A stretch of 64,000 nucleotides of DNA from Dehalococcoidia bacterium (GTDB taxonomy: Bacteria; Chloroflexota; Dehalococcoidia; Lucifugimonadales; Australimonadaceae). Location: assembly GCA_965220225.1 (NCBI GenBank), contig OZ244813.1, forward strand, positions 1,955,385-2,019,384, written 5' to 3'. Of the stretch, positions 28,811 through 47,384 are shown piece by piece. Position 1 is the first letter of the stretch, and every line of letters starts with the position of its first letter. Made by a program: the position numbers and the translations under genes. The notes below the pieces were generated by a model. The model made no database searches. It saw nothing but the letters and a program-made list of their open reading frames with translations, and was not told the DNA's origin.

Positions 28811-29115
28811 GGCGGAGTGCTGCGGCACTCATCGTCCCCGGCGCGGCGGCGGTCTCCGCCGCCGCGCACCACGAGGAGGAGACGATGCTCGCGGCCTTCG
28901 ACGGCGCGCTGACCGCCATGGCCTACGCGGCGGCGGGACTCACGCTCTTCGCCATCGTCTGGGCTGGCTTCGTGCTCATGGCCGAGGGGAGCGACTCGCG
29001 CGGCGCGGGCCGCGCGCGCAACGCAGTCGCCGGGGCAGTCCTCGGACTGGTGGTCGTCCTCTCGGCGAAGGCCATAGCCCTCGTCCTGCGCAGCGGCATC
29101 GTCCCCATCCCCTAG
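28792..29115 (+). CDS. Second VirB2/TrbC-like small membrane protein
   Basis: 107 aa with a long signal-like N-terminus. Two hydrophobic helices flank MAEGSDSRGAGRARN. The start is uncertain. Confidence 0.5.
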   Translation: MGVAVVRRSAAALIVPGAAAVSAAAHHEEETMLAAFDGALTAMAYAAAGLTLFAIVWAGFVLMAEGSDSRGAGRARNAVAGAVLGLVVVLSAKAIALVLRSGIVPIP

Positions 29116-29141
29116 CAACACCACACGAAAGGAGCAATACC

Positions 29142-31364: not shown

Positions 31365-31399
31365 GCCGCCCTGAGTCAAGCAAGGAACAGGAGGTATCT

Positions 31400-33982
31400 A
31401 TGCAGACGCGACCGACTGACAAGAAGCCCGGACGCAGCGAACTCCAGCACCCCACGGTGCTGCTGGCAGTGACTCCGCCGCGCACCGGCGAGCGCACGCT
31501 GCTCGGCGTCGAGAACCTCCTCGCCTCGATTGCCGTACCTGAGCCGTTCTCGCTCGAGCTCGCGGGAGACGCCGACGGCGTCGGCCTCTTGGCCCGCTGC
31601 CACGACGGCCAGGTGATCCGCAGCCAACTCGCGGCCCACTACCCCCAGGCGCGCATCCACGAGGTCGCGCCGGAGGACGACCCGCTTCGCCTCGACGAGG
31701 GCGAGCAGGCGTGGACGGTGACGCTGCGCTCCGGCGGGCCCGAGTACGTGCCCCTGCGCACCTTCCGCGACGCCGACCTGACCGACCCTGGCTCCGACCC
31801 GCTCATCGCGCTGCTGGGCGCGCTGTCGGACCTCAACCACGGGGAGCGCATCACCGCGCGACTGCTGCTGCGCTCGCTCGGCCCCGGCTGGGCGGAGCAC
31901 CACCAGCGGCTCGCCCACGAGCGCCCCAACACCGGGGCAGCACAGCCCGCGTACAACCCCCAGGCCGCGGCCCCCGCCGGGAGCGGCCTCGGCATGGCCG
32001 TCCTCGGCATCGGCGCGTTCGCAGCCCTCAAGGGGTACGAGTGGGTGCAGGCGGGGGAGACGTGGAAGGCCGTTCTGCTCGGGCTCGGCATCATGGCCGG
32101 ACTGATCGCGGCCGGGTGGGTGAAGGCGCGCTTCTTCAAGCGCCCGCCCGTCCACGACCCGGCCCTGATCAAGGAGAAGGTCTCCCGCATCGCCTTCGAT
32201 GCGGAGGTCCAGGTTACCGTCATCCTGCCTCAGCACGGCTCCCCGGAGCGGGTCTCGGAGCTGTTGAACGCCGTGGCCGCAGCCTACCGCCACTACGACC
32301 ACCCCGCCGGGGCCAGCTTCGTCATGGGCAAGGCCGCCCCCGCCGCTCCCGCCGTGGCCCTCGCCCCTGCCGTCCCGGGACTGTTCGGCAGACGCAGCAT
32401 CCTCGGCGTGCGCGAGGTCGCGGCCCTCTGGCACCCGCCCGGCGCCGGCGACGAGACGCCCCTGGTGGAGCGCTCCGGCGCACGGGCGCTCAATCCCTCA
32501 GCCAGAGGCGTGAGCGGTGGCGCGCTCGTGGGCGAGACCACCGCCGGTAGGCACACGCCTATCCGCTTCCCCGGCGACCTGCTTAGACGGCACCATCTTT
32601 ACGTCGCCCGCACACGCATGGGCAAGTCCACCCTCATGCACCACCTCGTCGTCCACAAGATGCGCGAGAAGGCCGAGGGCAGAGACCCCGACGCCATCGT
32701 CGTCATAGACCCCCACGCCGACCTTGCGGGCGGGCTGCTCGAACACGTGCCGGAGTCCCTCACAGGCCGGGTGCGCCTCATCGACCTGGCGGACGACAGG
32801 GGTGCACCGGGCATAAACCTCCTGGACACCCGCATCTTCACCGACCGTGACCGGACAGCCGACTCTGTGGTGCGCGTGGCCCGCGGGCTCTGGGAGCAGT
32901 GGGGTCCCCGCATGCAATCGATACTCGAACAGACCGTCAAGACGCTCCATGAGGCCAACGACCACCCGGCGACAGACGAGGGAAGCCAGTACACGATCCT
33001 CCACGCGCTGAAGCTGCTCTCTGACGAGCCGTTCCGCAACAGCATCCTCAGGAAGGTCGAGGACCCCTACCTGCTGGAGTGGTGGGCGCGGGACTTCGGC
33101 GGCTGGCACCCCCAGTACCGCGCCGAGGCGCTGGCTCCGGTCCAGACACGCCTCTCCTACTACGCCTCGTCCAAGCGGGCGCGCGCCATCCTCGGCCAGT
33201 CGCGCTCCACCATCGACCTGCGCGAGACCATCTTCGGCGGCGGGATCCTGATCGTCTCCACCGCCCAGGGGCACGTCGGCCGCGATGTGGCCGCACTGGT
33301 GGGCGCGTCCCTGCTGAACCTCGTCGATTCGGTGATACGACAGCAGGGCGACCTGCCGTTGGAGAGACGCCGCGGAGCCCTGGTCGTCATCGACGAGATG
33401 CAGTCCATCCCCGGCGTCGACTACGAGTCGATGCTCTCGGAGCTCGGCAAGTTCGGCGCATCGTTCGTCCTCGCCACCCAGAGCCTCGCCAAGCTGGACG
33501 ACCTCTCGCGGACGATGCGGGACACCCTCCTTGCCAATGTGGGCTGCCTCGCCGTCTTCCAGGTGGCTGGGAGCGACGCGCGCCAGCTGGTCTGGGAACT
33601 GGGCAGGGACCGGGTGACCGAGGATGACATAACGTCGCTGCCCGTCCACCACTGCTACGTCAGGCCCACGGTGGGGAAGGAGCGGATGCCCGCCTTCTCG
33701 ATGATGGTCCGCAGGCCCGAGCCGGGAGACCCTGCCGTCGCCGCCCTCATCCGCGCCGAGTCCGCGGCGTACACCCTGACGGCCGACGATCTCTCGGACG
33801 CCGATGCCAGTGCGCACCGGAAGGTGCAGGACTTCAGGAAGAGGGCCGACGACCTGGAGCACGGCGGTCACGGACAGGCCGCGCCGCCGCGGAGCCCCGG
33901 AGGAGGGAAGCAGCCCGGCAACCAGGACCGTCCTGCCGGTCGTGACGCTCGCAGGCATGCGGCAGAGGAGGCGGAGGAATGA
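31400..33982 (+). CDS. Type IV coupling protein-like ATPase (VirD4/TraG/TcpA class)
   Basis: ATG at 31400 follows GGAGG. TM segment LGMAVLGIGAFAAL...GLGIMAGLIAAGW. P-loop ARTRMGKST and Walker B LVVIDEMQS. Confidence 0.75.
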   Translation: MQTRPTDKKPGRSELQHPTVLLAVTPPRTGERTLLGVENLLASIAVPEPFSLELAGDADGVGLLARCHDGQVIRSQLAAHYPQARIHEVAPEDDPLRLDEGEQAWTVTLRSGGPEYVPLRTFRDADLTDPGSDPLIALLGALSDLNHGERITARLLLRSLGPGWAEHHQRLAHERPNTGAAQPAYNPQAAAPAGSGLGMAVLGIGAFAALKGYEWVQAGETWKAVLLGLGIMAGLIAAGWVKARFFKRPPVHDPALIKEKVSRIAFDAEVQVTVILPQHGSPERVSELLNAVAAAYRHYDHPAGASFVMGKAAPAAPAVALAPAVPGLFGRRSILGVREVAALWHPPGAGDETPLVERSGARALNPSARGVSGGALVGETTAGRHTPIRFPGDLLRRHHLYVARTRMGKSTLMHHLVVHKMREKAEGRDPDAIVVIDPHADLAGGLLEHVPESLTGRVRLIDLADDRGAPGINLLDTRIFTDRDRTADSVVRVARGLWEQWGPRMQSILEQTVKTLHEANDHPATDEGSQYTILHALKLLSDEPFRNSILRKVEDPYLLEWWARDFGGWHPQYRAEALAPVQTRLSYYASSKRARAILGQSRSTIDLRETIFGGGILIVSTAQGHVGRDVAALVGASLLNLVDSVIRQQGDLPLERRRGALVVIDEMQSIPGVDYESMLSELGKFGASFVLATQSLAKLDDLSRTMRDTLLANVGCLAVFQVAGSDARQLVWELGRDRVTEDDITSLPVHHCYVRPTVGKERMPAFSMMVRRPEPGDPAVAALIRAESAAYTLTADDLSDADASAHRKVQDFRKRADDLEHGGHGQAAPPRSPGGGKQPGNQDRPAGRDARRHAAEEAEE

Positions 33983-35631
33983 GACACGGAGGATGCGAGG
34001 CCGACCTGCTGCGCACGCTGGCTGCGATGCCCTTCCTCGACCGCCAGGAGATGGTGGCCGTCACCGGCTGGTCCAGGGGCGCTGTCTACGAGGCCATGGA
34101 AAGGCTGGAGAGCGGCGGTCTCGCCGCCTGGGTGCCCCACGCCACTGAGCTCGTTCCCTCCACCCGGAGATTCCACCTCACTGCCGACGGGCTCGGCCGC
34201 CTCGTGAATGCGGCGGGTATCGGCCCGGACGAACTTGTCCACCGCCACCCCGTCTTCGGCACATGGCGGCGCATCCTCATGGAGCGGCTCGATGCCCTCG
34301 CCGCCATCTACCGGCTGACCGCGGCCATCGCCCACATCGCCTATCCCCTGCGCTTCCACTGGTACCGCGCCAGGCCCCTGGACGCCTCCATAGACCTTCC
34401 CGACGGGCGCATCGTTGGCATCGTTCGCCGAGGTCTTACCGCCGACAGGACCGGCTTCTCCCGGCGGATGCGGAAACTGGGCAACGGCCCGCTCCCGGGG
34501 GCCGTCCTCGTGCTCATGCCGGATGAGATCGGTCTGCGGCACGCCCGCAGGATGCTGACGGGCGTTCCCGTTCCGTTCTTCCTCGCCCTGGAGCGGGAGG
34601 CGGTCACAGCCGCCCCCGCTGACCCGGTGTGGGTCCCGCCAGCCGTCCACGCCGCCATCGACCTGCGCACAGCCGTCGACCGGGCTGAGGCGCGCAGCGA
34701 GCTTCCCCCGGAACCCGCCCTGGCCCGCGCCTCCGCGCCCGCCGACCCCGCCGTGGCGGGTCCGACCTGGAACATCCTCGACCACATGCTCCCCACCTAC
34801 CTCAAGCCCGGCGAGAAGCGCGCCGCCGACCTGGTCTCGGACTGGCCCTGGATCGTCCTCAAGGACCTGGCGGCGCTGCTGGGCGTATCGGCCCAGAGGG
34901 CCTCCGAACTGGTCAACCCCCTGGAAGGCTTTGGCCTCGTCACCCGGCCCGTTGCCAGGAGCGGACGTCTCGCCCTCACTGACCGGGGGCTCGCGATGCT
35001 GGCCCGCAGGGACCGCACCTCGGTGGGTATGACGAAGAAACGGTGGAGCGTGTCGGCGCGCGTGAGGGAGGCGAGCTTCGACTGGCGCAGCGTGTCGGGC
35101 GGCAGGAGCCGCCAGTTGCTCAGGCACATCGAACACACGGCCGCCGTCCACGCCTTCGTGGCGGCCCTGGCCAAACAGGCGGCCCTCACCGGCTGGGAGG
35201 TAGTCCAGCTCGACCCGCCCCGGAGGGCCTCCCGGTACTTCCGGCACGGCGACAGCCGCCGCTCCATCCACCCCGACGCCTTCGGCGTGCTGCGCAAGGA
35301 CGGCGTCACCTGGCCCTTCTTCCTGGAGTGGGAGCGCCGCGCGGTGCGGCCGGTGACGATGTCCGAGCGCCTCGCACCGTACCTGCGTTACTACGCATCG
35401 CACAGGCCCATCGACGACCACGGCGTCCGCCCCGACGTCCTGATCGTCTTCGACGACGAGACCGCAGCCGCCCACTTCCTACGCGTGGCGCGGGAGGAGA
35501 TGCAGGCGAGGCGGGTGACCGTCCCTCTGTGGGTGTCCCATGCCGCCGCCATAGACGAGATGGGGCCGCTGGGACGCGCTTGGCGCGGCCCCGGCCACAG
35601 GGAGTCCCCGCTCGAGCTCCCGCCACAGTGA
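33979..35631 (+). CDS. Replication-relaxation (Replic_Relax) family protein, probable relaxase
   Basis: Repeated wHTH-like units and a C-terminal block HTAAVHAFVAALA...HPDAFGVL...WPFFLEWERR typical of Replic_Relax. Coupled to the coupling-protein gene. Confidence 0.7.
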   Translation: MRHGGCEADLLRTLAAMPFLDRQEMVAVTGWSRGAVYEAMERLESGGLAAWVPHATELVPSTRRFHLTADGLGRLVNAAGIGPDELVHRHPVFGTWRRILMERLDALAAIYRLTAAIAHIAYPLRFHWYRARPLDASIDLPDGRIVGIVRRGLTADRTGFSRRMRKLGNGPLPGAVLVLMPDEIGLRHARRMLTGVPVPFFLALEREAVTAAPADPVWVPPAVHAAIDLRTAVDRAEARSELPPEPALARASAPADPAVAGPTWNILDHMLPTYLKPGEKRAADLVSDWPWIVLKDLAALLGVSAQRASELVNPLEGFGLVTRPVARSGRLALTDRGLAMLARRDRTSVGMTKKRWSVSARVREASFDWRSVSGGRSRQLLRHIEHTAAVHAFVAALAKQAALTGWEVVQLDPPRRASRYFRHGDSRRSIHPDAFGVLRKDGVTWPFFLEWERRAVRPVTMSERLAPYLRYYASHRPIDDHGVRPDVLIVFDDETAAAHFLRVAREEMQARRVTVPLWVSHAAAIDEMGPLGRAWRGPGHRESPLELPPQ

Positions 35632-35699
35632 ATGATGGCCGCAAGCGGGAGCGGCGCAGCTACCGCGCTCCCCCCCCACCGATAAGGAGAACGAAAGCA

Positions 35700-35981
35700 A
35701 TGCGTTCACATGGCATGAACCAAGCGAGAGACACCCGGAGGCGTCGAGGACGGAACGTGATCCGGCTGAACAGGACGGCCCTCTGGGAGCGGCTGACGCT
35801 GCTCAACCGCTCTCAGAACTGGCTCGCCCGGGAGATCGGGGTCAGTCCCAGCTACGTCTCAATGCTGGTCAACGGCGGGCGGACGCCCTCGGGGCGCATC
35901 TGCAAGCGGATGCTCAAGGCCCTCGGCCTGAATGACTTTCACCAGATCTTCAGATTGGAGGCGACAGATGACGAACCGTAA
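35700..35981 (+). CDS. XRE-family helix-turn-helix regulator
   Basis: SQNWLAREIGVSPSYVSMLVNGGRTPS is a classical HTH_3 motif. ATG at 35700 follows AAGGAGA. Confidence 0.7.
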   Translation: MRSHGMNQARDTRRRRGRNVIRLNRTALWERLTLLNRSQNWLAREIGVSPSYVSMLVNGGRTPSGRICKRMLKALGLNDFHQIFRLEATDDEP

Positions 35982-36303
35982 CGTTGAACCCCGTTTCCAG
36001 ATCTACTCCGGAATCACAATCGACGGACGCCCTCTGCCATACCAGAGCGGCGTGCTGCCGGAGGACTTCGCACTGCGCATCGAACGGCTGAAGGAGGCCA
36101 GCGGCCTCACCTGGAACGGCTTTGCCTTGGCCATCGGCGTCGACCGCCAGCAGGTCCGGCGGTGGCGCAAGGAGGGCGTCGAGCCCTCAGGAGGACCGAT
36201 GCTCTCCCTCTTCCGCTTCGCGGCCCAGATGCCCGGCGGTCTGGAAAACCTCATGGGCGAGGACTTCCAAGTGAAGCGCTGGGAGGAAGAAGAGGAGGGC
36301 TAA
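35968..36303 (+). CDS. Putative HTH protein
   Basis: LTWNGFALAIGVDRQQVRRWRKEGVEPSG is HTH-like. 111 aa with an acidic C-terminus. Confidence 0.5.
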   Translation: MTNRNVEPRFQIYSGITIDGRPLPYQSGVLPEDFALRIERLKEASGLTWNGFALAIGVDRQQVRRWRKEGVEPSGGPMLSLFRFAAQMPGGLENLMGEDFQVKRWEEEEEG

Positions 36304-36415
36304 CCCCAGTCCACGGATGCTGCCGGGCGCCGCCCAGTCCGTCCGCGCCGGCGGCCCCATTCCCAGACCAACGAGAGACCGGCGGCCATGCGAGACCCCG
36401 CCGCGACCGTGCAAC

Positions 36416-36637
36416 ATGAAAGCTGACGCCGCAGAGAACGAAGACAACAGACATAACAGCGCGGACGGGGACGAGACCCTGGCCGAGTTGATGGCGGGCT
36501 ACACCCCCAAGCAGCGGGAGACTCTTCTGAAGGGGCTCCGCATCCTTGCGGACGTGGCGGTCCGTGCCCACATCCAGCGGCAAGCGCCGGTATCCCGCGA
36601 TGCGTCCGACCACGACGGTGAGGAGGAGGAGGCATGA
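36416..36637 (+). CDS. Hypothetical small acidic protein
   Basis: Internal ATG at 36416 (MKADAAENED...). No motif. Confidence 0.4.
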   Translation: MKADAAENEDNRHNSADGDETLAELMAGYTPKQRETLLKGLRILADVAVRAHIQRQAPVSRDASDHDGEEEEA

Positions 36638-36719
36638 TGGTTACCTGTCCCACACCGCGCGATGGCGATGAGTTGCCGAGCTGTACCGTCAGGCGGTACA
36701 CTTTGCGGTATGGTAATAA

Positions 36720-37028
36720 GTGATGGAGACCGGCGTGCGGCGTTTCGCCGATGAGCACGGTGACGAGGTCAGGCTCACCGACGAGCGGCTCCGGCACATC
36801 CTGCGAAGGCACCCCGAGATGGCCTTCCAGTTGCACCGGTTCGCCGAGACCCTGGCCAGCCCCGACGCGGTGATCCCATCGAGGACCGGCGCGGGGGTCC
36901 ATCTCTACTACCGTCTCTACCCGGACCAACAGGGCAGGAACCGCTACCTCTGCCTGGTGGTGAAGAGAGGAACGGACGACTCCTTCGTCCTCACCGGCTA
37001 CCTGAGTCGAGGCATCAGAGGAGGGTGA
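36720..37028 (+). CDS. Putative toxin, DUF4258 / BECR-fold RNase-like
   Basis: LTDERLRHILRRHPEM... followed by a beta-rich core ending VLTGY. Partnered with a DUF2283-like gene, which is a known toxin-antitoxin pairing. Confidence 0.45.
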   Translation: MMETGVRRFADEHGDEVRLTDERLRHILRRHPEMAFQLHRFAETLASPDAVIPSRTGAGVHLYYRLYPDQQGRNRYLCLVVKRGTDDSFVLTGYLSRGIRGG

Positions 37029-37447
37029 TCATGACGAACAGAAAGGTGTTCATCTCGTTCGACCATGAGGGAGACATGCTTGAGGTGCTGTGGGGGCATC
37101 GCGAGGGGTACTTCACTCCCACTGACGACGAGCGCATCCTCAAGCGCCTCGACGACGACGGCGAGGTGATGGGGTTCCTCATCCACGAGATGAGCACACT
37201 CAGGGAGTCCAACTCCGTCGAGTTCGAGCTGGTGTCCGAGGTGCCCACTGATGATGTCGCCAACGTCACTGTCCGAGAAGCGGCTAACCGGCTGGGCGTG
37301 TCAGAACGCAGGATCCGCAAACTGGTTCGGGAGGGCAGGGTGCGCGGAGCGACCAAAAGCGGAGCCGATTGGCTGATTCCAACACCGGTCGAGTTGATTC
37401 CGGGAAAGCGGGGTCCCGTGGGGGTTGCGGGGCGGATCGACTCGTAA
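37025..37447 (+). CDS. DUF2283-like domain fused to a MerR/excisionase-type HTH (putative antitoxin)
   Basis: ISFDHEGDMLEVLWG...DDDGEVMGFLI matches the DUF2283 pattern. C-terminal VTVREAANRLGVSERRIRKLVREGRV is an HTH. Start overlaps the upstream stop (GTGA). Confidence 0.6.
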   Translation: MIMTNRKVFISFDHEGDMLEVLWGHREGYFTPTDDERILKRLDDDGEVMGFLIHEMSTLRESNSVEFELVSEVPTDDVANVTVREAANRLGVSERRIRKLVREGRVRGATKSGADWLIPTPVELIPGKRGPVGVAGRIDS

Positions 37448-37576
37448 AGGGGAACCAAGGGCTACTGTACTGCGAACTCTTCGGTTGGAGGTGGAACTGT
37501 AATCCAAGGAGTATGAGGCTTCGGCCTGCCCCAACTACTACGTCCGCCTAAACACCCATCGCGGCTTGGCCGGAGG

Positions 37577-37800
37577 TTGGACTGCGCATCAAGCCTGCCC
37601 AGGTTGCCGCGAACTGGTCCAACGCCGTCTACAGGTTTTCGACGATCTTCTTCCGGCAGCGCCTTCGGCTCCGGGAGTGACGCGGCGTCCTCGACTCTCT
37701 CGTCGCGCAACCAGGTGATGTCCAGGTTGACCTTGTCGCGCTTGATGAGGTCGCCGTAGGAGAACGAGTGGAAGTGCCCGTCTCCTGCCGCTCGTAGCGG
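37577..37800 (-). pseudogene. hsdM: 3'-terminal remnant of a type I restriction-modification methylase gene (hsdM) with stop and frameshift
   Basis: Minus strand reads FHSFSYGDLIKRDKVNLDITWLRDERVEDAASLPEPKALPEE, then after a frameshift IVENL-TAG-TALDQFAA. This is the conserved HsdM C-terminus; the ~450 aa N-terminal part is missing. Confidence 0.65.
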
Positions 37801-37828
37801 TTGGGGGGGTTGTAGCACGCCACGAATA

Positions 37829-38714
37829 GTTGTGGATAGCGGGCAGGCGTCATTCAGTTACAATCGACAGCCCGGATCACTACGACCACCTAAGTTGTGG
37901 ATAGCGGGCAGGCGTCATTCAGTTACACTTTCGCGGTTGGCGAGGTGCCGGACCGTGGGGTTGTGGACAGCGGGTAGGCGTCATTCAGTTACACTATACG
38001 ACGCCTCCCCCGGAGACGGAGCAAGTTGTGGACAGCGGGTAGGCGTCATTCAGTTACACTCAGACGAGCCATCGAGACCGCCAGGAGCAAGTTGTGGACA
38101 GCGGGTAGGCGTCATTCAGTTACACTGCAGGCCTTTCGTACGATGGCCGCTCTTCCGTTGTGGACAGCGGGTAGGCGTCATTCAGTTACACTGTCGTGCA
38201 CAGGTTGGCTCTTCCAGTGCGGTTGTGGACAGCGGGTAGGCGTCATTCAGTTACACTACTGCGGTGAGGCCTGATATTCGGGTCTAGTTGTGGACAGCGG
38301 GTAGGCGTCATTCAGTTACACTAGGGCCGCACATGCACTGATAGCGAGACTGTTGTGGACAGCGGGTAGGCGTCATTCAGTTACACTTAGGCCGATCTGC
38401 GATCGGCTGAAACGGACGTTGTGGACAGCGGGTAGGCGTCATTCAGTTACACTTCGCCCCCGGCGGTCTCGATGGCTCGTCTGGTTGTGGACAGCGGGTA
38501 GGCGTCATTCAGTTACACTAGGGCCGTACATGTACTGACAGTGAGACGGTTGTGGACAGCGGGTAGGCGTCATTCAGTTACACTGACTATGCGGTCTATT
38601 CGTCCACCACCCTGTTGTGGACAGCGGGTAGGCGTCATTCAGTTACACTTACTCCTTCTTCTTCTCGCCCTCTTTGCGGTTGTGGACAGCGGGTAGGCGT
38701 CATTCAGTTACACT
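37829..38714. CRISPR. CRISPR array: 14 x 36-bp repeats and 13 spacers of 29-30 bp; no cas genes in the window
   Basis: Consensus GTTGTGGACAGCGGGTAGGCGTCATTCAGTTACACT. Repeat starts: 37829, 37894, 37960, 38025, 38091, 38157, 38222, 38287, 38352, 38418, 38484, 38549, 38614, 38679. The first two repeats carry 3 and 2 substitutions; the other 12 are identical. Confidence 0.97.
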
Positions 38715-38748
38715 AGCTGCGCAGCGCTCCCAGCGGGCCTGCCGAACG

Positions 38749-38776
38749 AGCCCCGGGTTCCCGGGGCTGTTCTTTT
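38749..38776 (+). terminator. Intrinsic terminator-like hairpin plus T-tract 35 bp after the last repeat
   Basis: AGCCCCGG-GTTC-CCGGGGCT (8-bp perfect stem) followed by GTTCTTTT on the plus strand. Confidence 0.55.
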
Positions 38777-39244
38777 GAAGGGGCGGAGGGGCCTCGAGAC
38801 ACCATTAGATTCTCTCCCCTGAGAAGTAGCAGCTATCTCGCGCTTGAGGCTAGCGCGCCAGCGCCGCGAACCAAGTGTCGACCATCGCTGGCAGAGGCCA
38901 TCGCGAGTTTGCTGCAATTGGCAGTGCTCGGCGCGATAGGAGATGTGGCAGCTGACACGCGGGATACAATCCAATCGGCTGGAGAGTTGAAGAACGGCAT
39001 CAAGACTGTTGCGGTCGCCGTAGTAATTCCCATGGTCGATCGTCGCCGCCAGAGGACAAGAGGTTTGCGTCGCTCAGTTGCGGATTGCGACCCGGTGGCT
39101 GTGCCATCCGCTGGGCTTCGAACGAACATGGCCAAGCTTCTTCCACAGGGCGAGCTGAGGACCAGTCGCGTACCGCTTGACCTACGAAAGCCTGTTCTTG
39201 CATGATGCAGGGTATGACCCAATACGACCTCAGGCAGGACAATC

Positions 39245-39436
39245 ATGCCTAGGAACAGAAAGGCCATCACCTTCTCGCTACCCCCTGAGATGGAGGAGAA
39301 GGTCAGACAGTTCATTCAGGAGGAGGATCGCACGATGAGCGAGTTCTTGCGCGAGGCGATTCGCCTCTACATGGAAGAGCAGGAATGGCTGCGGCAGCAG
39401 CGCCAGCGGCGGTCTGAGGCCCGCCGGAACCGCTAG
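39245..39436 (+). CDS. Ribbon-helix-helix (CopG/RHH) protein, possible regulator or directionality factor
   Basis: KAITFSLPPEMEEKVRQFIQEEDRTMSEFLREAIRLYMEE is a typical RHH pattern. Lies 23 bp upstream of the recombinase gene. Confidence 0.7.
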   Translation: MPRNRKAITFSLPPEMEEKVRQFIQEEDRTMSEFLREAIRLYMEEQEWLRQQRQRRSEARRNR

Positions 39437-39459
39437 CGATTGGAAAGGAGGACGCACTG

Positions 39460-41199
39460 GTGGATCAGCACACCGACTACATGCCGGCGGCCCTGTACGC
39501 CAGGGTCTCCAGCGACAGGCAGGACGTGGACCTGTCTGTGTCCGCTCAGCTGAGGGCACTGAGGGACTACGCCGAGAAGAATGGGTACCTCGTCGCCCGC
39601 GAGTACGTGGACGAGGCCGAGAGCGGCCGCATCGCCGACCGGCCGGAATTCCGCAAGATGATCGACGAGGCTGCCAAGCCCGACGCGCCCTTCCGGGAGA
39701 TACTGGTCTGGAAGTTCTCCCGCTTCACGCGCAAGCGCGAGCACGCGGTCGCCTTCAAGTCGATGCTGCGCAAGAAGGGCATCAGGGTCGTCTCTATCAC
39801 CGAGCACGCCGACGATACGCCGACAGGCAAGCTGATGGAGGCGATCATCGAGAGCGTGGACGAGTTCTACTCGGAGAACCTTGCGCAGGAGGTCATGCGG
39901 GGGATGCGCGAGTCCGCCTCGCGCGGCTTCTGGATGCCCTCGATGGCGCCCTACGGCTACCGGAAGGTGCACGTGCAGGACGGAGCGAAGAAGCGCCCCA
40001 CCCTGGAAACCGTCGAGGGCCCGGCCAGCGTGGTCAAGCGGATATTCGACATGGCGGAGGCCGGGACTGGGATGATACAGATCGTCCGGGCCCTCAACGG
40101 CGAGGGGATCGCCAGCCCCGCAGGCAAGCTCTGGTCGAAGACGGCGATCCACAACATGCTGAAGAATGAGGCGTATACGGGGACACTGGTCTGGGGCACG
40201 AATGCCAAGGACAAGGCAGGCCCGGTGCGTGTGGAGCATGCGTTCCCCGGCATCGTCTCCAAGGCCCAGTTCGGCCGCGTGAATCGGCTGATGCGCTCCC
40301 GTGCGCCCGCAGTGACCCATCCCCGCCGGGTCGGGAGCACCTACCTGCTCAGTGGACTGGTCAAGTGCAAGGCGTGCAACAGGGCGTTCAGCGGGCATGA
40401 TGCCAAGAGCGGCCGGTTCTCCTACTACGTGTGCCAGTCCATCATGAAGCATGGCAAGGATGCGTGCGATTCACCGCGGATCAACGCGAGATGGTTCGAG
40501 GAGATGATCGTCGGCAAGATCCGCTCCAACATCCTGACCGATAGCAACATCCGGGCACTGGTGAAGGTCGTGGACGAGCAGATGGATGGCGTGGCGAGTG
40601 AGCAGCGCAAGCGGCTCGAGACCATCGATGATGAGCTCGAGGACGTGAAGCGGAAGCTGCGCCGAATCTGGCAGTTCATAGAGAACACGGGGATAGACAT
40701 GGCCGACGCCTCGGAACGCATCCAGGAGCACCGCGAGCGGCAGCGGCGGCTTGAGGCTTCGGCGGCTGAGGCGAGGGCGATCCTCGCCCAGCGCAGGGAA
40801 GCCCTGGACGACGTGGAGACGATAGCGGCCTACGCGCAGGACATGAGCGAGTTTCTGAAGGACAGCGAGTTGACGGAGCGCAGGGCCTTCATAGAGACCT
40901 TCGTCAAGGAGATTGTCGTCATGCCCGGGAAGGCCGTCGTCCGGTACACCGTGCCCATGCCGGACGATAGCCCCATCCCGGGGGGCAAGGCCGAGGATAT
41001 GGCCTTGAACGGCTCGGTTCTGTCTACCGTCACATCAGGTCCACCACCCTTGGGTCTTGATCGCGAACCGTTCGCCGAAAAGCGCAGTCTCCCAGTGGAG
41101 GCGCTCAGGGAGCCCGTCCAGGGACAACAGCGGCTGCGTGAAGGGACTGACAAGTCCTCCTCATTGCCGGGAGGCAACACGCCGTCAGCGCAACTATAG
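39460..41199 (+). CDS. Large serine recombinase (integrase)
   Basis: Resolvase catalytic domain ALYARVSSDRQD...SVSAQ. Recombinase domain. Zinc ribbon CKACNRAFSG...YYVCQS...CDS. C-terminal coiled coil. Confidence 0.9.
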   Translation: MDQHTDYMPAALYARVSSDRQDVDLSVSAQLRALRDYAEKNGYLVAREYVDEAESGRIADRPEFRKMIDEAAKPDAPFREILVWKFSRFTRKREHAVAFKSMLRKKGIRVVSITEHADDTPTGKLMEAIIESVDEFYSENLAQEVMRGMRESASRGFWMPSMAPYGYRKVHVQDGAKKRPTLETVEGPASVVKRIFDMAEAGTGMIQIVRALNGEGIASPAGKLWSKTAIHNMLKNEAYTGTLVWGTNAKDKAGPVRVEHAFPGIVSKAQFGRVNRLMRSRAPAVTHPRRVGSTYLLSGLVKCKACNRAFSGHDAKSGRFSYYVCQSIMKHGKDACDSPRINARWFEEMIVGKIRSNILTDSNIRALVKVVDEQMDGVASEQRKRLETIDDELEDVKRKLRRIWQFIENTGIDMADASERIQEHRERQRRLEASAAEARAILAQRREALDDVETIAAYAQDMSEFLKDSELTERRAFIETFVKEIVVMPGKAVVRYTVPMPDDSPIPGGKAEDMALNGSVLSTVTSGPPPLGLDREPFAEKRSLPVEALREPVQGQQRLREGTDKSSSLPGGNTPSAQL

Positions 41200-41259: not shown

Positions 41260-42348
41260 ATGAGCGGGACTTCCACCGAGGGCACCTCTTGTCGTTCCGG
41301 CACGAGCGCGCGCTCGGAAGGCCAGGGACAGTGGTCCATCTACGCCCGGCTCGCTCTGGCGGCCGCAGCACTGACCACGGCAGTCATCGCGCTCCCGGGT
41401 TGCGGGAAGGACGACAGCACCCTCACTGTCTACTCCGGGCGAACACAGAGCCTCGTGCACCCCTTGCTCGAATCGTTCACCGAGGAGACAGGCACGCCCA
41501 TAGAGGTCAGGTATGCGGGTAGCTCAGCGATCGCGTCCACGATCCTCGAGGAAGGAGACAACACGCCGGCAGATGTGGTGTTCCTTCAGGACCCGGGTTC
41601 ATTGGGCGTCCTCGCGCAAGCGGGTTTCCTGGAGCAACTGCCGGAGGAACTTCTCAACAAGGTGGACAGCAGGTTCCGCTCACCGCAGGGGGAATGGGTA
41701 GGCACATCCGGCCGTGCACGTACGATCGTCTACAACACCTCCGTCATCGATCCTGAGACGGACCTGCCGGACTCGATACTGGACTTCGTTGACGATGAAT
41801 GGAAGGGGCGTGTCGGCTGGGCGCCGCTCAATGGTTCATTCCAGGCATTTGTGACGGGGCTTCGGGTACAGTGGGGAGAGGCCGTGACTCGAAAATGGCT
41901 TGAAGACATGAGAGACAACGACGCCCAAGCCTACCTCAACAACACCTCGACCGTGGCAGCAGTAGCGCGCGGTGAGGTGGATGTAGGGTTCGTGAACCAC
42001 TACTACCTTGAGCGCTTCCTCGAGGAGGAGGGACCTGGTTTCCGCGCTCGCAACTACTTCCTTGGGGAAGGAGACCCCGGCGCCCTCGTGCTGGTGGCCG
42101 GAGCAGCCATCCTGAAGCAGACGAACAATAGCGAGGCTGCGGAGCGCTTCATCGAATACCTCTTGTCAGAGGAAGCCCAGCGGTACTTCGCCGAGGAAAC
42201 CAAGGAGTACCCATTGGCCGCAGGGGTCCAACCCGAGGGAGACGTCCCCTCACTGGAGTCGCTGGACCCCCCGGACGTGGACCTGGGCAACCTTAGCGAC
42301 CTCCGGGGCACGCAAGCGCTGCTGCGCGATGTTGGCCTTCTCCAGTGA
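41260..42348 (+). CDS. ABC-type periplasmic solute-binding lipoprotein, Fe(III)/FbpA-AfuA-like; no permease or ATPase adjacent
   Basis: Lipobox IALPGCGKDD. LTVYSGRTQSLVHPLLESFTEETGTPIEVRYAGS and VVFLQDPG are typical of iron(III)-type SBPs. Confidence 0.7.
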   Translation: MSGTSTEGTSCRSGTSARSEGQGQWSIYARLALAAAALTTAVIALPGCGKDDSTLTVYSGRTQSLVHPLLESFTEETGTPIEVRYAGSSAIASTILEEGDNTPADVVFLQDPGSLGVLAQAGFLEQLPEELLNKVDSRFRSPQGEWVGTSGRARTIVYNTSVIDPETDLPDSILDFVDDEWKGRVGWAPLNGSFQAFVTGLRVQWGEAVTRKWLEDMRDNDAQAYLNNTSTVAAVARGEVDVGFVNHYYLERFLEEEGPGFRARNYFLGEGDPGALVLVAGAAILKQTNNSEAAERFIEYLLSEEAQRYFAEETKEYPLAAGVQPEGDVPSLESLDPPDVDLGNLSDLRGTQALLRDVGLLQ

Positions 42349-42402
42349 GAGACTCCGAACACCGAAGAGAGCGCTGCTGCTACACAGCGTGGTGAGGGGA
42401 CC

Positions 42403-43785
42403 ATGACAACCGGGAAGACGGGAATAGCGCCGCGGCGGATCGCCATCGTGGGCGGGGGCGTCTCGGGGCTCGGCGCTGCCTGGGCGCTCCATCATCACCC
42501 GGACCGCTTCGATTTCCGGCTGTTCGAGGCCCAGGAACAGATCGGCGGCAACGCGGTTACAGTCGATATGCCGCAAGACGACGGCAGTTCGATCCCTTTC
42601 GACATCTCCGTCACCGCCTGCATCCCCTCGGTGTACCACCACATCCTGCTGCTGATGCAGAAGTTCGGCATCGATCTGGTCGATACCAGGTTCAGCTACA
42701 GCGTGATGTACGGTGGCCACGTATACGCCCACGACCTCGATTCCGACATCAGGGAGCAGTTGCAGCCCGAGATCGCGAAGTTCCAGAAGCTCTTGAGACG
42801 GCTGCGCTGGTTCGGTGGGCTCACTCGTTCCCAGTCAAAGTTCCTGAACGCACTCAACCCGTTCAACTACATCAGTATGGGCACGCTGCTGAACCTGGGG
42901 GGATTCTCCGGAGACTTCCGATACAAGGTACTGAAGCCCATGTTCGTCAATTTCCTCATGGCGACGAACGTGTTCGATATGCCCGCAGCGCTCTTCTCGA
43001 GGTATCTCGAGTTCTTCGATATCGAGAAGGCTACTCCCATGCAGACGTGGGACCAGGGGACGAGGCGCGTCTACGAGAACCTGTCAGCCAACTTCCGCGA
43101 CAAGATCTACCTGAACAGACCTGTTCGCAAAGTGTACCGGCGAACGGATAGCGTCGTTGTCGAGGACCAGGATAGTGTGCAAGAGACGTTCGACGACGTG
43201 ATATTCGCATGTAACGCGAACCAGACGCTGATGATCCTGGACGAACCCACGTTTCTCGAACGCTACATCCTCTCGTCGATACGTTACGAGAGTGAACTGC
43301 ACAACCACACGGTCGTTCACTCTGACTCGTCTGTTCTTCCAGACAACGAAGTGAAGGCCTTGACCACACGGAGCAACCACATAGAACAGTACGGCGCACG
43401 GCCGGACAACTATGAGATCACGTACATCATGCACAACCAGCAGCCATGGGCCAGCCGGTCCGACAAACCCTGCCTGGTGACCTACAACCCGATCAGCCCC
43501 ATCGATGAAAGAAAGATCGTCAAGAAGTGGTGGTTCCAGCACATCGTCCATGACGTGCGTCACGTCGTACTGCTCGTTAACCTGTTCCGCTGCATCCAGG
43601 GCAAGAGGCGAACGTGGCACTGTGGAGCTCATACCCTGGTCAACAGCCAGGAGACCTGCTTCGTCTCCGGGCTCGCCACTGCGAGACAGATTGGCGCCGA
43701 ATACCCCTTCGACGATCCTGCGGCGAAGCGGTCGTTCAACTACTACGGGAGCATCATGTACGGCTGGCGCTTCAGGAAGGCGTAG
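42403..43785 (+). CDS. FAD/NAD(P)-binding oxidoreductase (amine-oxidase-like fold)
   Basis: N-terminal dinucleotide motif IAIVGGGVSGLGAAWAL...FEAQEQIGGN. Confidence 0.75.
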   Translation: MTTGKTGIAPRRIAIVGGGVSGLGAAWALHHHPDRFDFRLFEAQEQIGGNAVTVDMPQDDGSSIPFDISVTACIPSVYHHILLLMQKFGIDLVDTRFSYSVMYGGHVYAHDLDSDIREQLQPEIAKFQKLLRRLRWFGGLTRSQSKFLNALNPFNYISMGTLLNLGGFSGDFRYKVLKPMFVNFLMATNVFDMPAALFSRYLEFFDIEKATPMQTWDQGTRRVYENLSANFRDKIYLNRPVRKVYRRTDSVVVEDQDSVQETFDDVIFACNANQTLMILDEPTFLERYILSSIRYESELHNHTVVHSDSSVLPDNEVKALTTRSNHIEQYGARPDNYEITYIMHNQQPWASRSDKPCLVTYNPISPIDERKIVKKWWFQHIVHDVRHVVLLVNLFRCIQGKRRTWHCGAHTLVNSQETCFVSGLATARQIGAEYPFDDPAAKRSFNYYGSIMYGWRFRKA

Positions 43786-43844
43786 CGCTGAATGCTCCTG
43801 AGGGTGCTTGCCCGGCGTCTTTTCCGGGTGGTACCGTGCGTCAC

Positions 43845-44597
43845 ATGATGATGGCACTCGCTCCATCTATCCGAACGGCAGTGGGTCGCAGATTGTCGAT
43901 CAGCGTGCTGGCGTTGGGGTTCCTCTTCCTGGCAGCCGCGTGTGAATCGGAACCCACGCCGACCCCTGAGTTGTCGGTGGATGAGGTGCTTTCCGGTGCG
44001 GCGGAAGAATTGGCTGCACTGTCGACGGCGAAATTCCAGATGACTGACGAGATGGAATCAGGAGCGAAGTTCTTCGAGATGACTCTGAAGAGCGTGGAAG
44101 GAGAAGTCAAAACCCCCGACAGCTTCAGGATGCTGGTGGAGTTGGTGAACCCCGGTCTTGGATTCGTGGAGGTCGGAATGCTGGCGGTCGGGGACCAGGC
44201 GTACATGCAGTTCTCCGCGGACGCTCCGTGGCTCCCCCTGCCGCTGGACCAGGTACCCTTCAACTTCGGAGGGATAGGCGTTACCTTGAGCGAGATACTG
44301 CCCAGAATCAAGAACGCAGAGATCACAGGCCGGGAGTCTGTAGAAGGCGGGCGGGCGGTTCGTATAGACGGGGATATCGTCTCTGAGGATATGTCCGGTC
44401 TCATCACGGATGTGGCCTCCGGCCATGCGATCACGTTGTCCGTGTGGATCGACGAGGTCTCGCATGCCCTGCGTCAGCTCAGGATAGACGGCAGGCTCTA
44501 CGATGAAGATGCGCCGGAGACGACGCGGCTGGTGATCATCAGGGACATCAACTCCCCTGTCGATATCCAACTTCCAGAGACAGCCTCAGGGTCGTGA
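43845..44597 (+). CDS. LppX/LprAFG-family (LprG-like) lipid-binding lipoprotein
   Basis: Start MMMALAP... with lipobox FLAAAC. The body resembles the LppX_LprAFG fold pattern. 4-nt overlap with the downstream MFS gene, as in lprG-p55. Confidence 0.6.
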   Translation: MMMALAPSIRTAVGRRLSISVLALGFLFLAAACESEPTPTPELSVDEVLSGAAEELAALSTAKFQMTDEMESGAKFFEMTLKSVEGEVKTPDSFRMLVELVNPGLGFVEVGMLAVGDQAYMQFSADAPWLPLPLDQVPFNFGGIGVTLSEILPRIKNAEITGRESVEGGRAVRIDGDIVSEDMSGLITDVASGHAITLSVWIDEVSHALRQLRIDGRLYDEDAPETTRLVIIRDINSPVDIQLPETASGS

Positions 44598-46090
44598 GCA
44601 CTGCCAGGTCCGGCCTCCAATCCCTGAGATCTTCCCAGACTGTGGTGCTGGGGATCATCTGCCTGGGGGTATTCTCGACTGCCCTGGACCAGACCGTGGT
44701 GGTCGCCGCCCTGCCTGCGGTGATGGTGGACCTGGAGATCCCTCTTACCGACCTGGACAGGGCGTCCTGGATCGTAACCGGATACTTGATCAGCTACACC
44801 GTAGCGATGCCACTGGCAGGGCGTCTGTCCGACGTCTACGGCCGCGTCCGGATGTTCCACGCGGCATTGATCGTCTTCTCCATCGGGTCGGCGTTCGTGG
44901 CACTTGCGCCGAACTTCGAGTGGGTAGTATCCGCCAGAGTGGTCCAGGCCTTCGGAGGCGGCGCCACGGTCCCCATAGGCCTCGCCATGGCTGTGGCCGC
45001 TGTTTCGCCGGAGAAAAGAGGATTGGCGATAGGGCTCGTGGCGGCCTCGGCTGAAGCCGGGTCCGTGCTGGGTCCTCTCTACGGAGGGGCCATCATCGAG
45101 TTGCTGGGCTGGCGTTGGATATTCTGGCTGGACATCCCCCAGAGCCTCTTCCTGATAGCGCTTCTGGCCATCCTGCCGAACCGTGCCAACCCTGCGGCAA
45201 AGATGGACTACTTCGGGGCGCTCGTGCTCGGAGCAGCCCTCACCGTCCTCAGTATCGGCCTGTCGCAGAGAGCGATCTTCTCCGGAGAATCCCTCCTCCC
45301 GTATGTCCTGATAGCCCTTGGGGTCGGGCTGGTCCTCCTGTTGGTCCTGTTCGAGCGACGCACGACCCAGCCCCTGCTGGCATCGTTCCTGTATACCTCC
45401 AGGGCGTTCCTGTCCTCCAACATCACGCAGTTCCTCGTGGGAGTTGCGTTGATCATCTCACTGGTAGCCGTGCCCCTCATGGCCGGCACCGTCATGGAGA
45501 AGAGGGCGTGGGAGAGCGCCCTTCACCTGGTCCGTCTTACGGCCGCCATTCCGGTTGGAGCCGTTGTTGGAGGCTACATCCTGCGTTGGACGGGAGTGAG
45601 GACGGTGTGTATCACCGGCCTCGCGTTCATAGGAACGGGTCTGCTGTTCATGAGTGGTTGGGAGACGGAGGTGGAGGAGCTCAGGCTGACCGTGCCTCTG
45701 GTCATGGCGGGTCTGGGGTTCGGGCTGGTCATTCCTCCCATAGGCGTCAGCGCTTTGAGCGCAGCACCCAGTCACTACTGGGGAGCGGCGGCATCGTTGA
45801 TCACCGCATCGCGCATGGTGGGGATGGCGTTGGGGCTGGCGACCTTGTCCGCCTGGGGCATCGAGCGCTTCTACAGTCTGACCGCTGACGTGACGATCGG
45901 GTCGACGTTCGAGGAGACCGAGGCCCCCTTGATCGAAGCGGGAGTGACCGTGTTCCAGAACCTCTTCATGATCTCAGGGTTCCTTGCCCTGTTGGCCATC
46001 CTCCCGGCCCTGCTCATGCGAGTGGAAGATGTCGAAGAGGAGGCTTCCCCTGAGGGCAGCCGCTGGCCTACATCCCTGCCTGAAACATGA
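44594..46090 (+). CDS. MFS transporter, DHA2-like (14 TM)
   Basis: ALDQTVVVAALP, GRLSDVYGR motif and ~14 hydrophobic segments. Confidence 0.85.
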   Translation: MSTARSGLQSLRSSQTVVLGIICLGVFSTALDQTVVVAALPAVMVDLEIPLTDLDRASWIVTGYLISYTVAMPLAGRLSDVYGRVRMFHAALIVFSIGSAFVALAPNFEWVVSARVVQAFGGGATVPIGLAMAVAAVSPEKRGLAIGLVAASAEAGSVLGPLYGGAIIELLGWRWIFWLDIPQSLFLIALLAILPNRANPAAKMDYFGALVLGAALTVLSIGLSQRAIFSGESLLPYVLIALGVGLVLLLVLFERRTTQPLLASFLYTSRAFLSSNITQFLVGVALIISLVAVPLMAGTVMEKRAWESALHLVRLTAAIPVGAVVGGYILRWTGVRTVCITGLAFIGTGLLFMSGWETEVEELRLTVPLVMAGLGFGLVIPPIGVSALSAAPSHYWGAAASLITASRMVGMALGLATLSAWGIERFYSLTADVTIGSTFEETEAPLIEAGVTVFQNLFMISGFLALLAILPALLMRVEDVEEEASPEGSRWPTSLPET

Positions 46091-46208
46091 CGTGTTCAGG
46101 TGCAGACACGAGGGTGGGATCGGCGAGCGAATCCCGTATCCTAGATAGCATCCGGATCGTTCCAGGGAGTTGCCCACCCCGAGCCGTCCGGGCAGGGAGC
46201 GCCATTCG

Positions 46209-47285
46209 ATGACAACCCGGCGTGCAGAGCCTGACAACGTCCAGTTGCCTTCCCCGTTTCCCGAGGGTTGGTACTTCATTGCAAGCCGCAAGGCCATACA
46301 GAAGGCCAGGCTCATCCAGAAGACCTGGATGGGCGAGAACATCGTCGTCTGGTGCGATGACGAGGGGCGCATCTGCGCCTCCGGGGCTTACTGTCCGCAC
46401 CTTGGCTCCGATCTGGGGCCCGCTGCCGGAGGGCGCGTACGTGAGGGTCGGCTCGTCTGTCCCTTCCACGGCTTCGAGTACGATGCAACCGGCCAGTGCG
46501 TCGCCACTCCCTATGCTCCCCCGCCCCGGGCCGCGCGGTTACGCGTCTTTGAGACGCAGGAGATAGCCGGACTGATCTTCGGTTGGTGGGGGATCGATGG
46601 GCGGGAGTCGCAATGGCGCCTGCCCACCGACCTGTCAGACCAGACCGGCTGGAGCGCCCTCTCGGTCCGTACCCTCCGCTTCCCCGGGCATCCCCAGGAT
46701 ACGACGGAGAACTCGGTGGACCTGGCCCACCTGCTCTTCGTCCACGGGTACGGCAACGTAGACCGCGTCGGAGAGGTGTCGGTAGACGGGGCCTACTTCC
46801 GGAGCGACTTCGATTTCAGGCGCAACTACAGGATAGCCAGGATCCTGCCCTTCAATCTGGACGTCTCCACCAACACCCACATCTTCGGACTCGGCTACTC
46901 GTTCGTGGTGATCCGTGAGAAGTCCATCGGCATGGATATGCGTCTGTGGGTGCTGTCGACGCCTGTCGACGGCACGCTCATCGACCTGTCGCTGGTCTCT
47001 CAGGTGCGGGAGATCCGCAACCCGAAACGCCGGGTAGCCGGCCTGGGGTTCCTCCCCGTAGGACTGCGCGCGCCGCTCATGAACCGGTTCATCGCCGCGC
47101 AGCAGGAGCAGGACGTTCTCCGGGACGTGGTCATCTGGAGCCGCAAGCGGTACCGCTCTCTCCCGCGCCTGAGCCGTGCCGACGGGGAGATCATGACCTT
47201 TCGCGCGTACTGTGCCCAGTTCTACCTCGGCCCACAAGACCCCACGGCCCCACTCCCTCATCCGTTGGAGCGGACTGTACAATAG
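46209..47285 (+). CDS. Rieske [2Fe-2S] non-haem iron oxygenase
   Basis: CPHLGSDLG...CPFHGFEY Rieske motif. ATG at 46209. Confidence 0.8.
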   Translation: MTTRRAEPDNVQLPSPFPEGWYFIASRKAIQKARLIQKTWMGENIVVWCDDEGRICASGAYCPHLGSDLGPAAGGRVREGRLVCPFHGFEYDATGQCVATPYAPPPRAARLRVFETQEIAGLIFGWWGIDGRESQWRLPTDLSDQTGWSALSVRTLRFPGHPQDTTENSVDLAHLLFVHGYGNVDRVGEVSVDGAYFRSDFDFRRNYRIARILPFNLDVSTNTHIFGLGYSFVVIREKSIGMDMRLWVLSTPVDGTLIDLSLVSQVREIRNPKRRVAGLGFLPVGLRAPLMNRFIAAQQEQDVLRDVVIWSRKRYRSLPRLSRADGEIMTFRAYCAQFYLGPQDPTAPLPHPLERTVQ

Positions 47286-47384
47286 CGCGCCGGTACACCA
47301 GGCCTGCTCCAATGGAAGGATCGTACCATCGGATGCGGAGGCGACAGCGCTTCGTTCAGTAGAGATCAAGGGGGAAGGTGAGGC

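Follow-up and report, generated by a model that had tools for sequence, protein, structure and literature searches.

A CRISPR (short palindromic repeats that are clustered and regularly interspaced) array lacking its own cas (CRISPR-associated) genes was found within an integrative and conjugative element (ICE) on a 64-kb stretch of bacterial DNA, the whole of which is referred to here as the window. The array extends over positions 37829–38714 of the + strand and is located towards the right end of the ICE, where it is preceded by a conserved gene for an excisionase-like protein and followed by an operon encoding an RHH protein and a large serine recombinase. Its repeats belong to a family that is linked to Cas9 in other bacteria, and we consider below whether the array constitutes mobile cargo that a host Cas9 may use in trans.

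A search with the repeat unit GTTGTGGACAGCGGGTAGGCGTCATTCAGTTACACT, allowing up to three mismatches, yielded exactly 14 + strand matches in the window and none in 100 shuffles. The repeats start at 37829, 37894, 37960 and onwards to 38679, at a spacing of 65–66 nt, and the final copy ends at 38714. Twelve of the 14 copies are perfect, those at 37829 and 37894 carry three and two mismatches, respectively, and between them lie 13 spacers, each of 29–30 nt. A preliminary description, made from the sequence alone, had reported 14 repeats of 36 bp with these numbers of substitutions and spacers, and the repeat search reproduced them exactly. Folding of the repeat revealed no significant structure on either strand, and none better than that of shuffled sequences.

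The spacers had also been described as unique, and this holds in the sense that none of the 13 matches any other part of the window, but two pairs of spacers within the array are clearly related. Spacers sp4 (38061–38090) and sp10 (38454–38483) represent one 30-bp protospacer in opposite orientations; they are identical over 22 of 22 nt and then show three differences, all at wobble positions (every third base). Spacers sp8 (38323–38351) and sp11 (38520–38548) are 86% identical, with five differences that all fall at third-codon positions, and both encode the peptide GRTCTDSET. Since the members of these pairs differ only at synonymous sites, the spacers were evidently taken from protein-coding genes of like elements that occurred in two allelic forms, and wobble-only pairs of this type have the appearance of genuine adaptive memory. 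The sp4/sp10 pair has shared boundaries yet a flipped orientation, which is odd for acquisition directed by a protospacer-adjacent motif and may reflect an occasional inverted integration.

In a scan of 185,579 species-representative genomes, for which the query consisted only of the repeat termini and their spacing, the repeat family was detected at 21 loci, with a 36-nt repeat of the form GTTGTGGA[T/C]...AGTTACA[C/A]T; individual loci fetched for comparison, with or without an array, are denoted by L numbers. The family loci derive from metagenome-assembled genomes of Chloroflexota/Dehalococcoidia, Candidatus Binatia, Planctomycetota, Krumholzibacteriia and Thermodesulfobacteriota. The window repeat is closest to those of L002/L027 (L002 being from Dehalococcoidia) and of L026, with identities at 33 of 36 positions in each case, followed by L008 and L020, both from Chloroflexota (32/36), and L018 (31/36). 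A scan of the JGI metagenomes for the subfamily repeat gave no matches.

Wherever the flanks could be read, the arrays of this family adjoin genes for a Cas9 of 1026–1197 aa, recognised by HNH_4, RuvC_III and Cas9_a domains, and for a Cas1 of about 300 aa; this applies to L002/L027, L026, L008 and L018, of which L026 and L027 have in addition an annotated Cas2 of 109 aa. The content of cas9, cas1 and cas2 therefore defines a type II-C operon, and at the cas-linked loci the array is convergent with it. L026, a circular 2.94-Mb genome of a related organism, carries a chromosomal II-C locus with 25 repeats. The window array has the form expected of this type, with a 36-nt unstructured repeat, spacers of about 30 nt and a repeat homologous to the cas-linked ones, and this homology places it within the type II-C family that depends on Cas9 and tracrRNA (trans-activating CRISPR RNA). 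Short arrays of the same family were also observed on Binatia chromosomes in L001 (1833–2195, five pattern-matching repeats) and L005 (4088–4254, three repeats); these apparently have no Cas9-sized open reading frame (ORF) within about 4 kb and may be further orphan mini-arrays.

Nine of the loci carry a predicted tracrRNA gene directly upstream of cas9 and transcribed divergently from it, namely L008 (5235–5345), L018 (5705–5835), L012 (6601–6735), L006 (5856–5990) and L011 (5863–5997) and, on the minus strand, L003 (320–452), L013 (1045–1181), L026 (9856–9967) and L027 (9857–9968). In each, a 20–23-nt inverted copy of repeat positions 14–36 is followed by the motif UUCAYAMCAAG, which pairs with repeat positions 1–7 (GUUGUGG), and then by YCGCAGG and a hairpin, and most of the loci have after these a GC-rich hairpin with a T-run that we read as a terminator. 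From this arrangement we take the conserved small-RNA gene to be that of the tracrRNA, with the usual geometry of lower stem, bulge and upper stem. Together, these results provide a defined repeat and tracrRNA family for compact Cas9s (1026–1197 aa) in Chloroflexota, Binatia and Planctomycetota.

The window repeat pairs with the tracrRNAs of L026, L027 and L008 as well as their own repeats do. Duplex energies for the window repeat and the cognate repeat, respectively, were -57.6 and -60.0 kcal/mol with the L026 tracrRNA, -52.1 and -52.6 kcal/mol with that of L027, and -51.8 and -47.9 kcal/mol with that of L008, compared with only about -25 kcal/mol for repeats of distant subfamilies. Moreover, two of the three differences between the window repeat and the L026/L027 repeats are C-to-U changes at which pairing is kept as G:U. 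This compatibility with foreign tracrRNAs favours use of the array in trans by a host Cas9:tracrRNA complex.

The orientation and the direction of growth of the array can be deduced from the same relatives. The + strand, on which the repeat reads GTTGTGGA..., is taken to be the sense strand of the crRNAs (CRISPR RNAs) because it accords with the anti-repeat and lower-stem geometry of the tracrRNAs at cas-linked loci and because a terminator lies downstream. This predicted intrinsic terminator, at 38749–38778 on the + strand, begins 35 nt past the last repeat and consists of AGCCCCGG-GTTC-CCGGGGCT followed by GTTCTTTTGA; hairpins are also present between the array and cas2 in L018, L012 and L003. 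The opposite assignment, in which the minus strand would be the sense strand, had been guessed from the degenerate repeats at the left end and was rejected, since both the tracrRNA terminator and the lower-stem motif identify the GTTGTGG orientation, on the + strand, as the sense one.

The two variant repeats (37829–37929, + strand) would then mark the trailer end. Both carry T9 and C16, to which the first copy adds A35. Of these bases, C16 and A35 agree with the cas-linked relatives L002, L018 and L026, and the L026 array likewise has a variant repeat at its cas-distal end. This pattern points to polarised growth from the right end, with at least 11 spacers having been added after the leader-proximal repeat gained its present sequence. 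Between the last repeat and the terminator, where canonical arrays face cas2, lies a leader-like stub of about 35 nt (38715–38749, + strand) that shows 16–19 identities over 35 positions with the leaders of L026, L002 and L008, which share 19–21 of 35 among themselves. Beyond about 35 nt from the last repeat, where cas2 is located in the relatives, similarity falls to about 25%, which is background, and the alignment suggests that the stub is the remnant of a cas-linked leader.

No cas genes were detected in the window, in agreement with the preliminary description. A PADLOC scan of 137 six-frame ORFs of at least 150 aa produced matches to 44 families at E<=1e-3, and no Cas model was present among the best 25 of these, the remainder being weaker than E 1.5e-5; the families listed were mad2/mad8, a DnaG-like primase model, E1-E2, a DpdE/ZorD-like helicase and a methyltransferase. 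In a tblastn search of the window, for which the queries were Cas proteins of five related loci (five Cas9, three Cas1 and two Cas2 sequences), the best match had an E value of 0.03.

The required tracrRNA is also missing from the window, a point that the earlier account had not raised. An nhmmer search (--max) of the window with a profile of seven tracrRNAs detected the array repeats and otherwise only matches with E values of at least 19, and searches of the window for the lower-stem and nexus motifs and, by BLAST, for an anti-repeat found none. When both strands of the entire window were scanned with RNAduplex, the best site outside the array reached -41.8 kcal/mol, at a position inside a coding gene, against reference levels of -23.6 +/- 3.8 kcal/mol for background and -48 to -60 kcal/mol for true tracrRNAs. 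A weak repeat-like stretch at 39054–39079 (19/26) was considered as a tracrRNA or as a fifteenth repeat and was rejected because it has neither the lower-stem motif nor a scaffold and scores at background. The window thus differs from a complete type II-C locus in having no cas9, cas1, cas2 or tracrRNA, and from CampyICE1-like elements in that no cas9 was found on the ICE.

The array lies within an insertion of about 1.7 kb (37448–39172) that is missing from related ICEs. It extends from the stop codon (37447) of a backbone gene encoding an HTH_17, excisionase-like protein (37025–37447, + strand), which forms the left border, to just before the -35 element (39177) of a conserved promoter, TTGACC-18-CATGAT. 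This promoter precedes the RHH gene (39245–39436) and the large serine recombinase gene (39460–41199), and the whole segment, 39177–41199 on the + strand, constitutes both the right border of the insertion site and the right end of the ICE. The backbone genes on both flanks are 89–96% identical to ICEs of other genomes and the serine recombinase is distal to the array, which bears out the earlier claim that the array is inside the ICE. It had been placed between a toxin-antitoxin-like pair and the RHH and recombinase module, and this position is correct, but the supposed pair consists of the PBECR2 nuclease and HTH_17 genes, which are conserved ICE backbone.

L022, whose relaxase is 96% identical, aligns with the window at 23976–37422 (95.8%, ICE backbone), at 39258–41046 (93.5%, RHH and recombinase genes) and at 42395–44822 (91%, chromosome), and in place of the array segment it carries 1.65 kb (13440–15087) encoding a 450-aa protein without a Pfam match. 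In L024 the site is empty (4423–4510), with only about 25–90 nt from the HTH_17 gene to the RHH promoter. Other, unrelated inserts occupy it in L023 (13468–14274), L025, L028 (11468–13854), L029 (11467–15900), L030 and L031, and L032 ends inside the site; the L029 insert encodes a 1243-aa fn3/BNR protein and the others comprise 0.6–2.4 kb of unannotated DNA. Judged from these alignments, the interval from HTH_17 to the RHH promoter serves the ICE family as a hotspot at which the cargo is hypervariable, and a cargo hotspot has thus been located in a very abundant family of elements.

The insertion itself contains no intact ORF with a coding signature. At its left end, abutting the trailer of the array, is a decayed 3' remnant of an hsdM gene of a type I restriction-modification system (37462–37818, minus strand), which is interrupted by one frameshift and one in-frame stop. 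It was identified from a match to residues 462–504 of the EcoKI M subunit and from 25 HsdM-type fragments with E values of 1e-9 to 1e-16; a search for the donor locus by means of the remnant led to no more than distant HsdM fragments, at 47–67% identity. The remnant suggests that the cassette came from a defence island. The right part (38779–39172), a stretch of about 390 bp that separates the terminator from the RHH promoter, has no coding signature, Rfam family or homologue in any fetched locus, and the array flanks have no homologue among the related loci. The 12 leader-side repeats are identical although the ICE backbones differ by 4–6%, which suggests either recent capture or recent activity of the array.

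There are further associations between this ICE family and the II-C loci. In L020 genes for a coupling protein (72% identity) and a relaxase (46%) are followed by an array in the same orientation, at the end of the contig. In L002/L027 a complete cas9-cas1-cas2-array locus abuts homologues of three ICE genes, those for the helicase (73%), the Zn-ribbon protein (71%) and the methyltransferase (69%), after which come RadC and SSB. Separately, a defence cluster of DUF499 (HEPN_Swt1) and DUF1156 genes was observed beside ICE-family genes in L027 (1–14300) and L024 (6800–12635). It includes in addition NYN and SNF2/NOV_C genes in L027 and HEPN and NTP_transf_2 genes in L024, and it is located beside cas9 at the helicase end in L027 and beside the recombinase end in L024. 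This cluster may travel as cargo of the ICE or may mark a neighbourhood in which integration is preferred.

The limits of the ICE were estimated as approximately 8200–41200, a length of about 33 kb, by gene calling based on GC3 (GC content at third codon positions) together with Pfam matches. Its left part carries a DUF2958 gene, a ThiF/JAB/E2 module and genes for an SNF2-like helicase and a DUF6094 methyltransferase, and these are followed by RadC, SSB, Rad52 and a primase. The transfer module comprises TrbL/VirB6, a 583-aa protein, VirB4/TraC, the coupling protein and a Replic_Relax relaxase, and the right part HTH_3, the PBECR2 nuclease, HTH_17, the array, RHH and the large serine recombinase. 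Pfam support was obtained from TraC/AAA_10, TrwB_AAD_bind, Replic_Relax, TrbL and Resolvase+Recombinase+Zn_ribbon_recom, and the VirB4, coupling protein, relaxase and integrase genes fall in one block between chromosomal genes. The GC content of the ICE core is 66–73%, compared with 59–65% in most flanking 2-kb bins, with a step at about 8 kb. The relaxase has more than 3000 homologues, many of them 64–96% identical, and one relative is from Chloroflexota; by this measure the ICE family is very abundant.

The ICE has two accessory sets, a ThiF/JAB/prokaryotic-E2 ubiquitin-like module (9184–11482) and a RadC-SSB-Rad52-primase module (18510–22214), and the PADLOC models mad2 and mad8 each matched two ORFs. 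To the left of the ICE are genes for an LRR protein and a BamB-like protein, and near the left edge of the window (181–220) the 17-bp sequence TCCATCTTAACAGGACC is repeated in tandem in 2.4 copies. Beyond 41.2 kb lie metabolic genes for, among others, a solute-binding protein, an amine oxidase, an MFS protein, Rieske oxygenases and an MMPL protein. Among the products of this region (41260–56658) are a methyltransferase whose C-terminal domain is of the sterol-methyltransferase kind, a fusion of GPP34 with cytochrome P450, Rieske oxygenases resembling KshA and LigXa and an MMPL/sterol-sensing transporter, and the region may thus serve to modify steroids or sterols. Neither Rfam families nor tRNAs were detected when the window was scanned for them.

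We are highly confident of the identity and the location of the array. The fuller account, in which an orphan type II-C array is recent cargo at the ICE hotspot and is used in trans by a host Cas9, is on balance the one we believe, with modest confidence. Borrowing of host Cas machinery had been put forward in the preliminary description, and it emerges as the best reading given the II-C affiliation and the compatible tracrRNA pairing. By this account the array would have been taken recently, along with a short leader stub and a neighbouring hsdM fragment, from a related bacterium, probably a member of the Chloroflexota, in which it belonged to a cas9-cas1-cas2-array locus or a defence island, and would have landed in the hotspot that the HTH_17 gene and the RHH/serine-recombinase operon enclose. 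The sense strand would be co-directional with the upstream ICE genes and end at its own terminator, and pre-crRNA could be produced by read-through or, by analogy with the II-C arrays of Neisseria and Campylobacter (PMC5965381), from the -10-like TACACT that closes each repeat. As the ICE has no cas9, cas1, cas2 or tracrRNA, the crRNAs would act only where a compatible Cas9:tracrRNA is supplied in trans. There, guided by the 13 spacers, Cas9 would cut the mobile elements from which these spacers derive, such that the ICE–host pair is protected or competitors are excluded. We infer expression, use in trans and benefit from the features of the locus described above.

Several results weigh against this account. 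A scan for consensus sigma-70 promoters called none in the repeats. The spacer search that had been proposed earlier, in plasmid, ICE, phage and metagenome collections, produced no targets: none was found in GenBank phages or PLSDB plasmids, IMG/VR yielded no matches to exact or codon-degenerate patterns and the JGI metagenomes none to the degenerate pattern, and the window spacers matched none of the fetched ICE and cas loci at nucleotide or peptide level. Nor did spacers of the related arrays match the window ICE. Such failure is unsurprising for uncultured lineages of soil and sediment. Furthermore, of the best 120 Cas9 homologues, which reach down to 39% identity, none could be assigned to the 2,938,702-bp contig with the window relaxase, a protein identical there at 550 of 550 residues; the placing procedure, which covers the source contig, gave the correct outcome for L008 and L002. 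The replicon carrying the ICE is therefore probably without a cognate Cas9, and the present host may lack the effector. Finally, there is no array at the hotspot in nine close ICE relatives (L022–L025 and L028–L032). The array had earlier been described as well maintained, but it is no standing feature of this ICE family and represents a one-off hotspot insertion, missing in these nine and accompanied by an hsdM pseudogene fragment, and these two observations fit an accidental passenger equally well.

Indeed, the array could be a non-functional passenger, a piece of some host CRISPR locus or defence island that recombined recently, is carried along in the hotspot, is used by no Cas9 and will decay, and we regard this as a serious possibility, though not the probable one. 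It would account for the frameshifted hsdM fragment and for the absence of the array from all nine relatives, as well as for the loss of cas2 from a point about 35 nt past the last repeat, and it is in keeping with a window in which no tracrRNA was found, a cognate Cas9 that could not be traced to the source contig and spacers for which no targets were found. The condition of the array speaks against this reading, since the 12 leader-side repeats are identical, the spacers are intact and there is no visible decay. Moreover, the array is co-directional with the ICE operon and has its own terminator, and in an independent ICE of the family (L020) the relaxase is likewise followed by an array. 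However, an array captured only recently would be intact in any case, and the passenger explanation is therefore hard to separate from use in trans. A somewhat different role, which we consider unlikely, is that of a recombination handle, whereby homology to host CRISPR loci would serve alternative integration, the capture of spacers or cas genes, or mobilisation. In L002/L027, ICE-related genes do lie directly beside an entire cas9-cas1-cas2-array locus, the cassette at the hotspot has the look of an exchange with a defence island, whether illegitimate or homologous, and the idea has been discussed for plasmids (PMC9071438), but the array has no spacers in common with other loci, and neither hybrid arrays nor signs of junctions were seen.

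The two remaining explanations are both very improbable. One is that an unrecognised effector encoded by the ICE uses the array, an alternative raised in the preliminary description. Candidates exist among ORFs without Pfam matches (27059–28810, 23559–24404, 24824–25504, 17775–18464, 11338–12171 and 36317–36637), but those of the transfer module (the 583-aa protein encoded at 27059–28810, one of about 111 aa after HTH_3 and one of about 200 aa before TrbL) recur in array-less relatives, and the array-bearing insertion has no intact coding ORF. The repeat has no hairpin that could be used for processing of the Cas6 or Cas12 type, and it matches the Cas9/tracrRNA-linked family at 31–33 of 36 positions; its compatibility with foreign tracrRNAs also makes such an effector very unlikely. 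The other is an anti-defence decoy, in which crRNAs from the ICE would load the Cas9 of a recipient and dilute guides that target the ICE, or would carry anti-cas spacers. The repeat is fully compatible with foreign tracrRNAs and there is a precedent for anti-cas spacers in orphan arrays (PMC9071438), but no spacer here matches cas9, cas1, cas2 or the related loci at nucleotide or peptide level.

If use in trans by a host Cas9 is nevertheless correct, the array represents a clear case of a type II (Cas9) array that travels on an ICE with neither protein nor tracrRNA. CRISPR memory would then move separately from its machinery, and the notion of borrowed immunity, framed for plasmids and viruses, would come to include the ICEs that uncultured bacteria of soil and sediment carry. 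One may speculate further, although we are doubtful of the scheme as a whole, that the ICE carries a portable II-C memory that does nothing in hosts devoid of Cas9, of which the present one may be an example, and becomes active on conjugation into any recipient with a matching chromosomal Cas9:tracrRNA, whose Cas9 it would re-arm against competitors of the ICE, the hotspot being the point at which such memory cassettes are swapped with host defence islands.

Arrays without cas genes have been encountered on other mobile elements. Archaeal viruses, reportedly described by Medvedeva and coworkers in 2019, are said to carry mini-CRISPR arrays of one or two spacers that match the host repeat and are used against competitors. 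There too the mobile element supplies only the array; here there are 13 spacers and the carrier is an ICE, not a virus. Among about 17,800 plasmids, 207 orphan arrays were found, enriched on conjugative plasmids, and both use in trans and recombination were proposed for them (Pinilla-Redondo et al., NAR 2022; PMC9071438). These resemble the window array in being solitary, cas-less and carried by a conjugative element, and in that either use of host Cas proteins in trans or a remnant status is proposed. The differences are that the carrier here is an ICE of an uncultured, probably Chloroflexota, lineage, that the array is of type II-C with the tracrRNA missing as well and that, with 13 spacers, it is not especially short.

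CampyICE1, an ICE of Campylobacter with a degenerate type II-C CRISPR-Cas9 system (van Vliet et al. 2021; PMC8743540), provides a parallel as to carrier, in that parts of a II-C system reside on an ICE together with families of variant spacers, and the role proposed for it is warfare on competing mobile elements. CampyICE1 differs in having a cas9, without cas1 and cas2, where the present ICE has the array only, and its spacers were mapped to plasmids, whereas none were mapped here. The II-C systems of Neisseria meningitidis and Campylobacter jejuni (PMC5965381) likewise have 36-nt repeats that start with GTTGT and end in a -10-like TACAAT or TACACT. Further similarities to them are the array convergent with cas9-cas1-cas2, as in the cas-linked relatives of the window array, and the tracrRNA with lower stem, bulge and upper stem. 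Unlike in those systems, the putative repeat promoters in the window keep only the G of the extended -10 TG, and cas genes and tracrRNA are not present in cis.

In Pseudomonas aeruginosa, isolated type I-F arrays have been transferred horizontally and were shown to function with the host system in trans (bioRxiv 2026; PMC13142298). They share with the window array a location apart from cas genes, an association with mobile elements, the character of a portable memory and a leader like that of a cas-adjacent array; there the host has the cognate cas operon, whereas here the system is of type II-C and no cognate effector could be placed on the source contig. The phenomenon is therefore a known one, and the window array is a well-documented instance of it. 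What is particular here is a type II-C array without a tracrRNA, carried by an abundant and probably Chloroflexota-associated ICE family, with a clear history of insertion at a hotspot.

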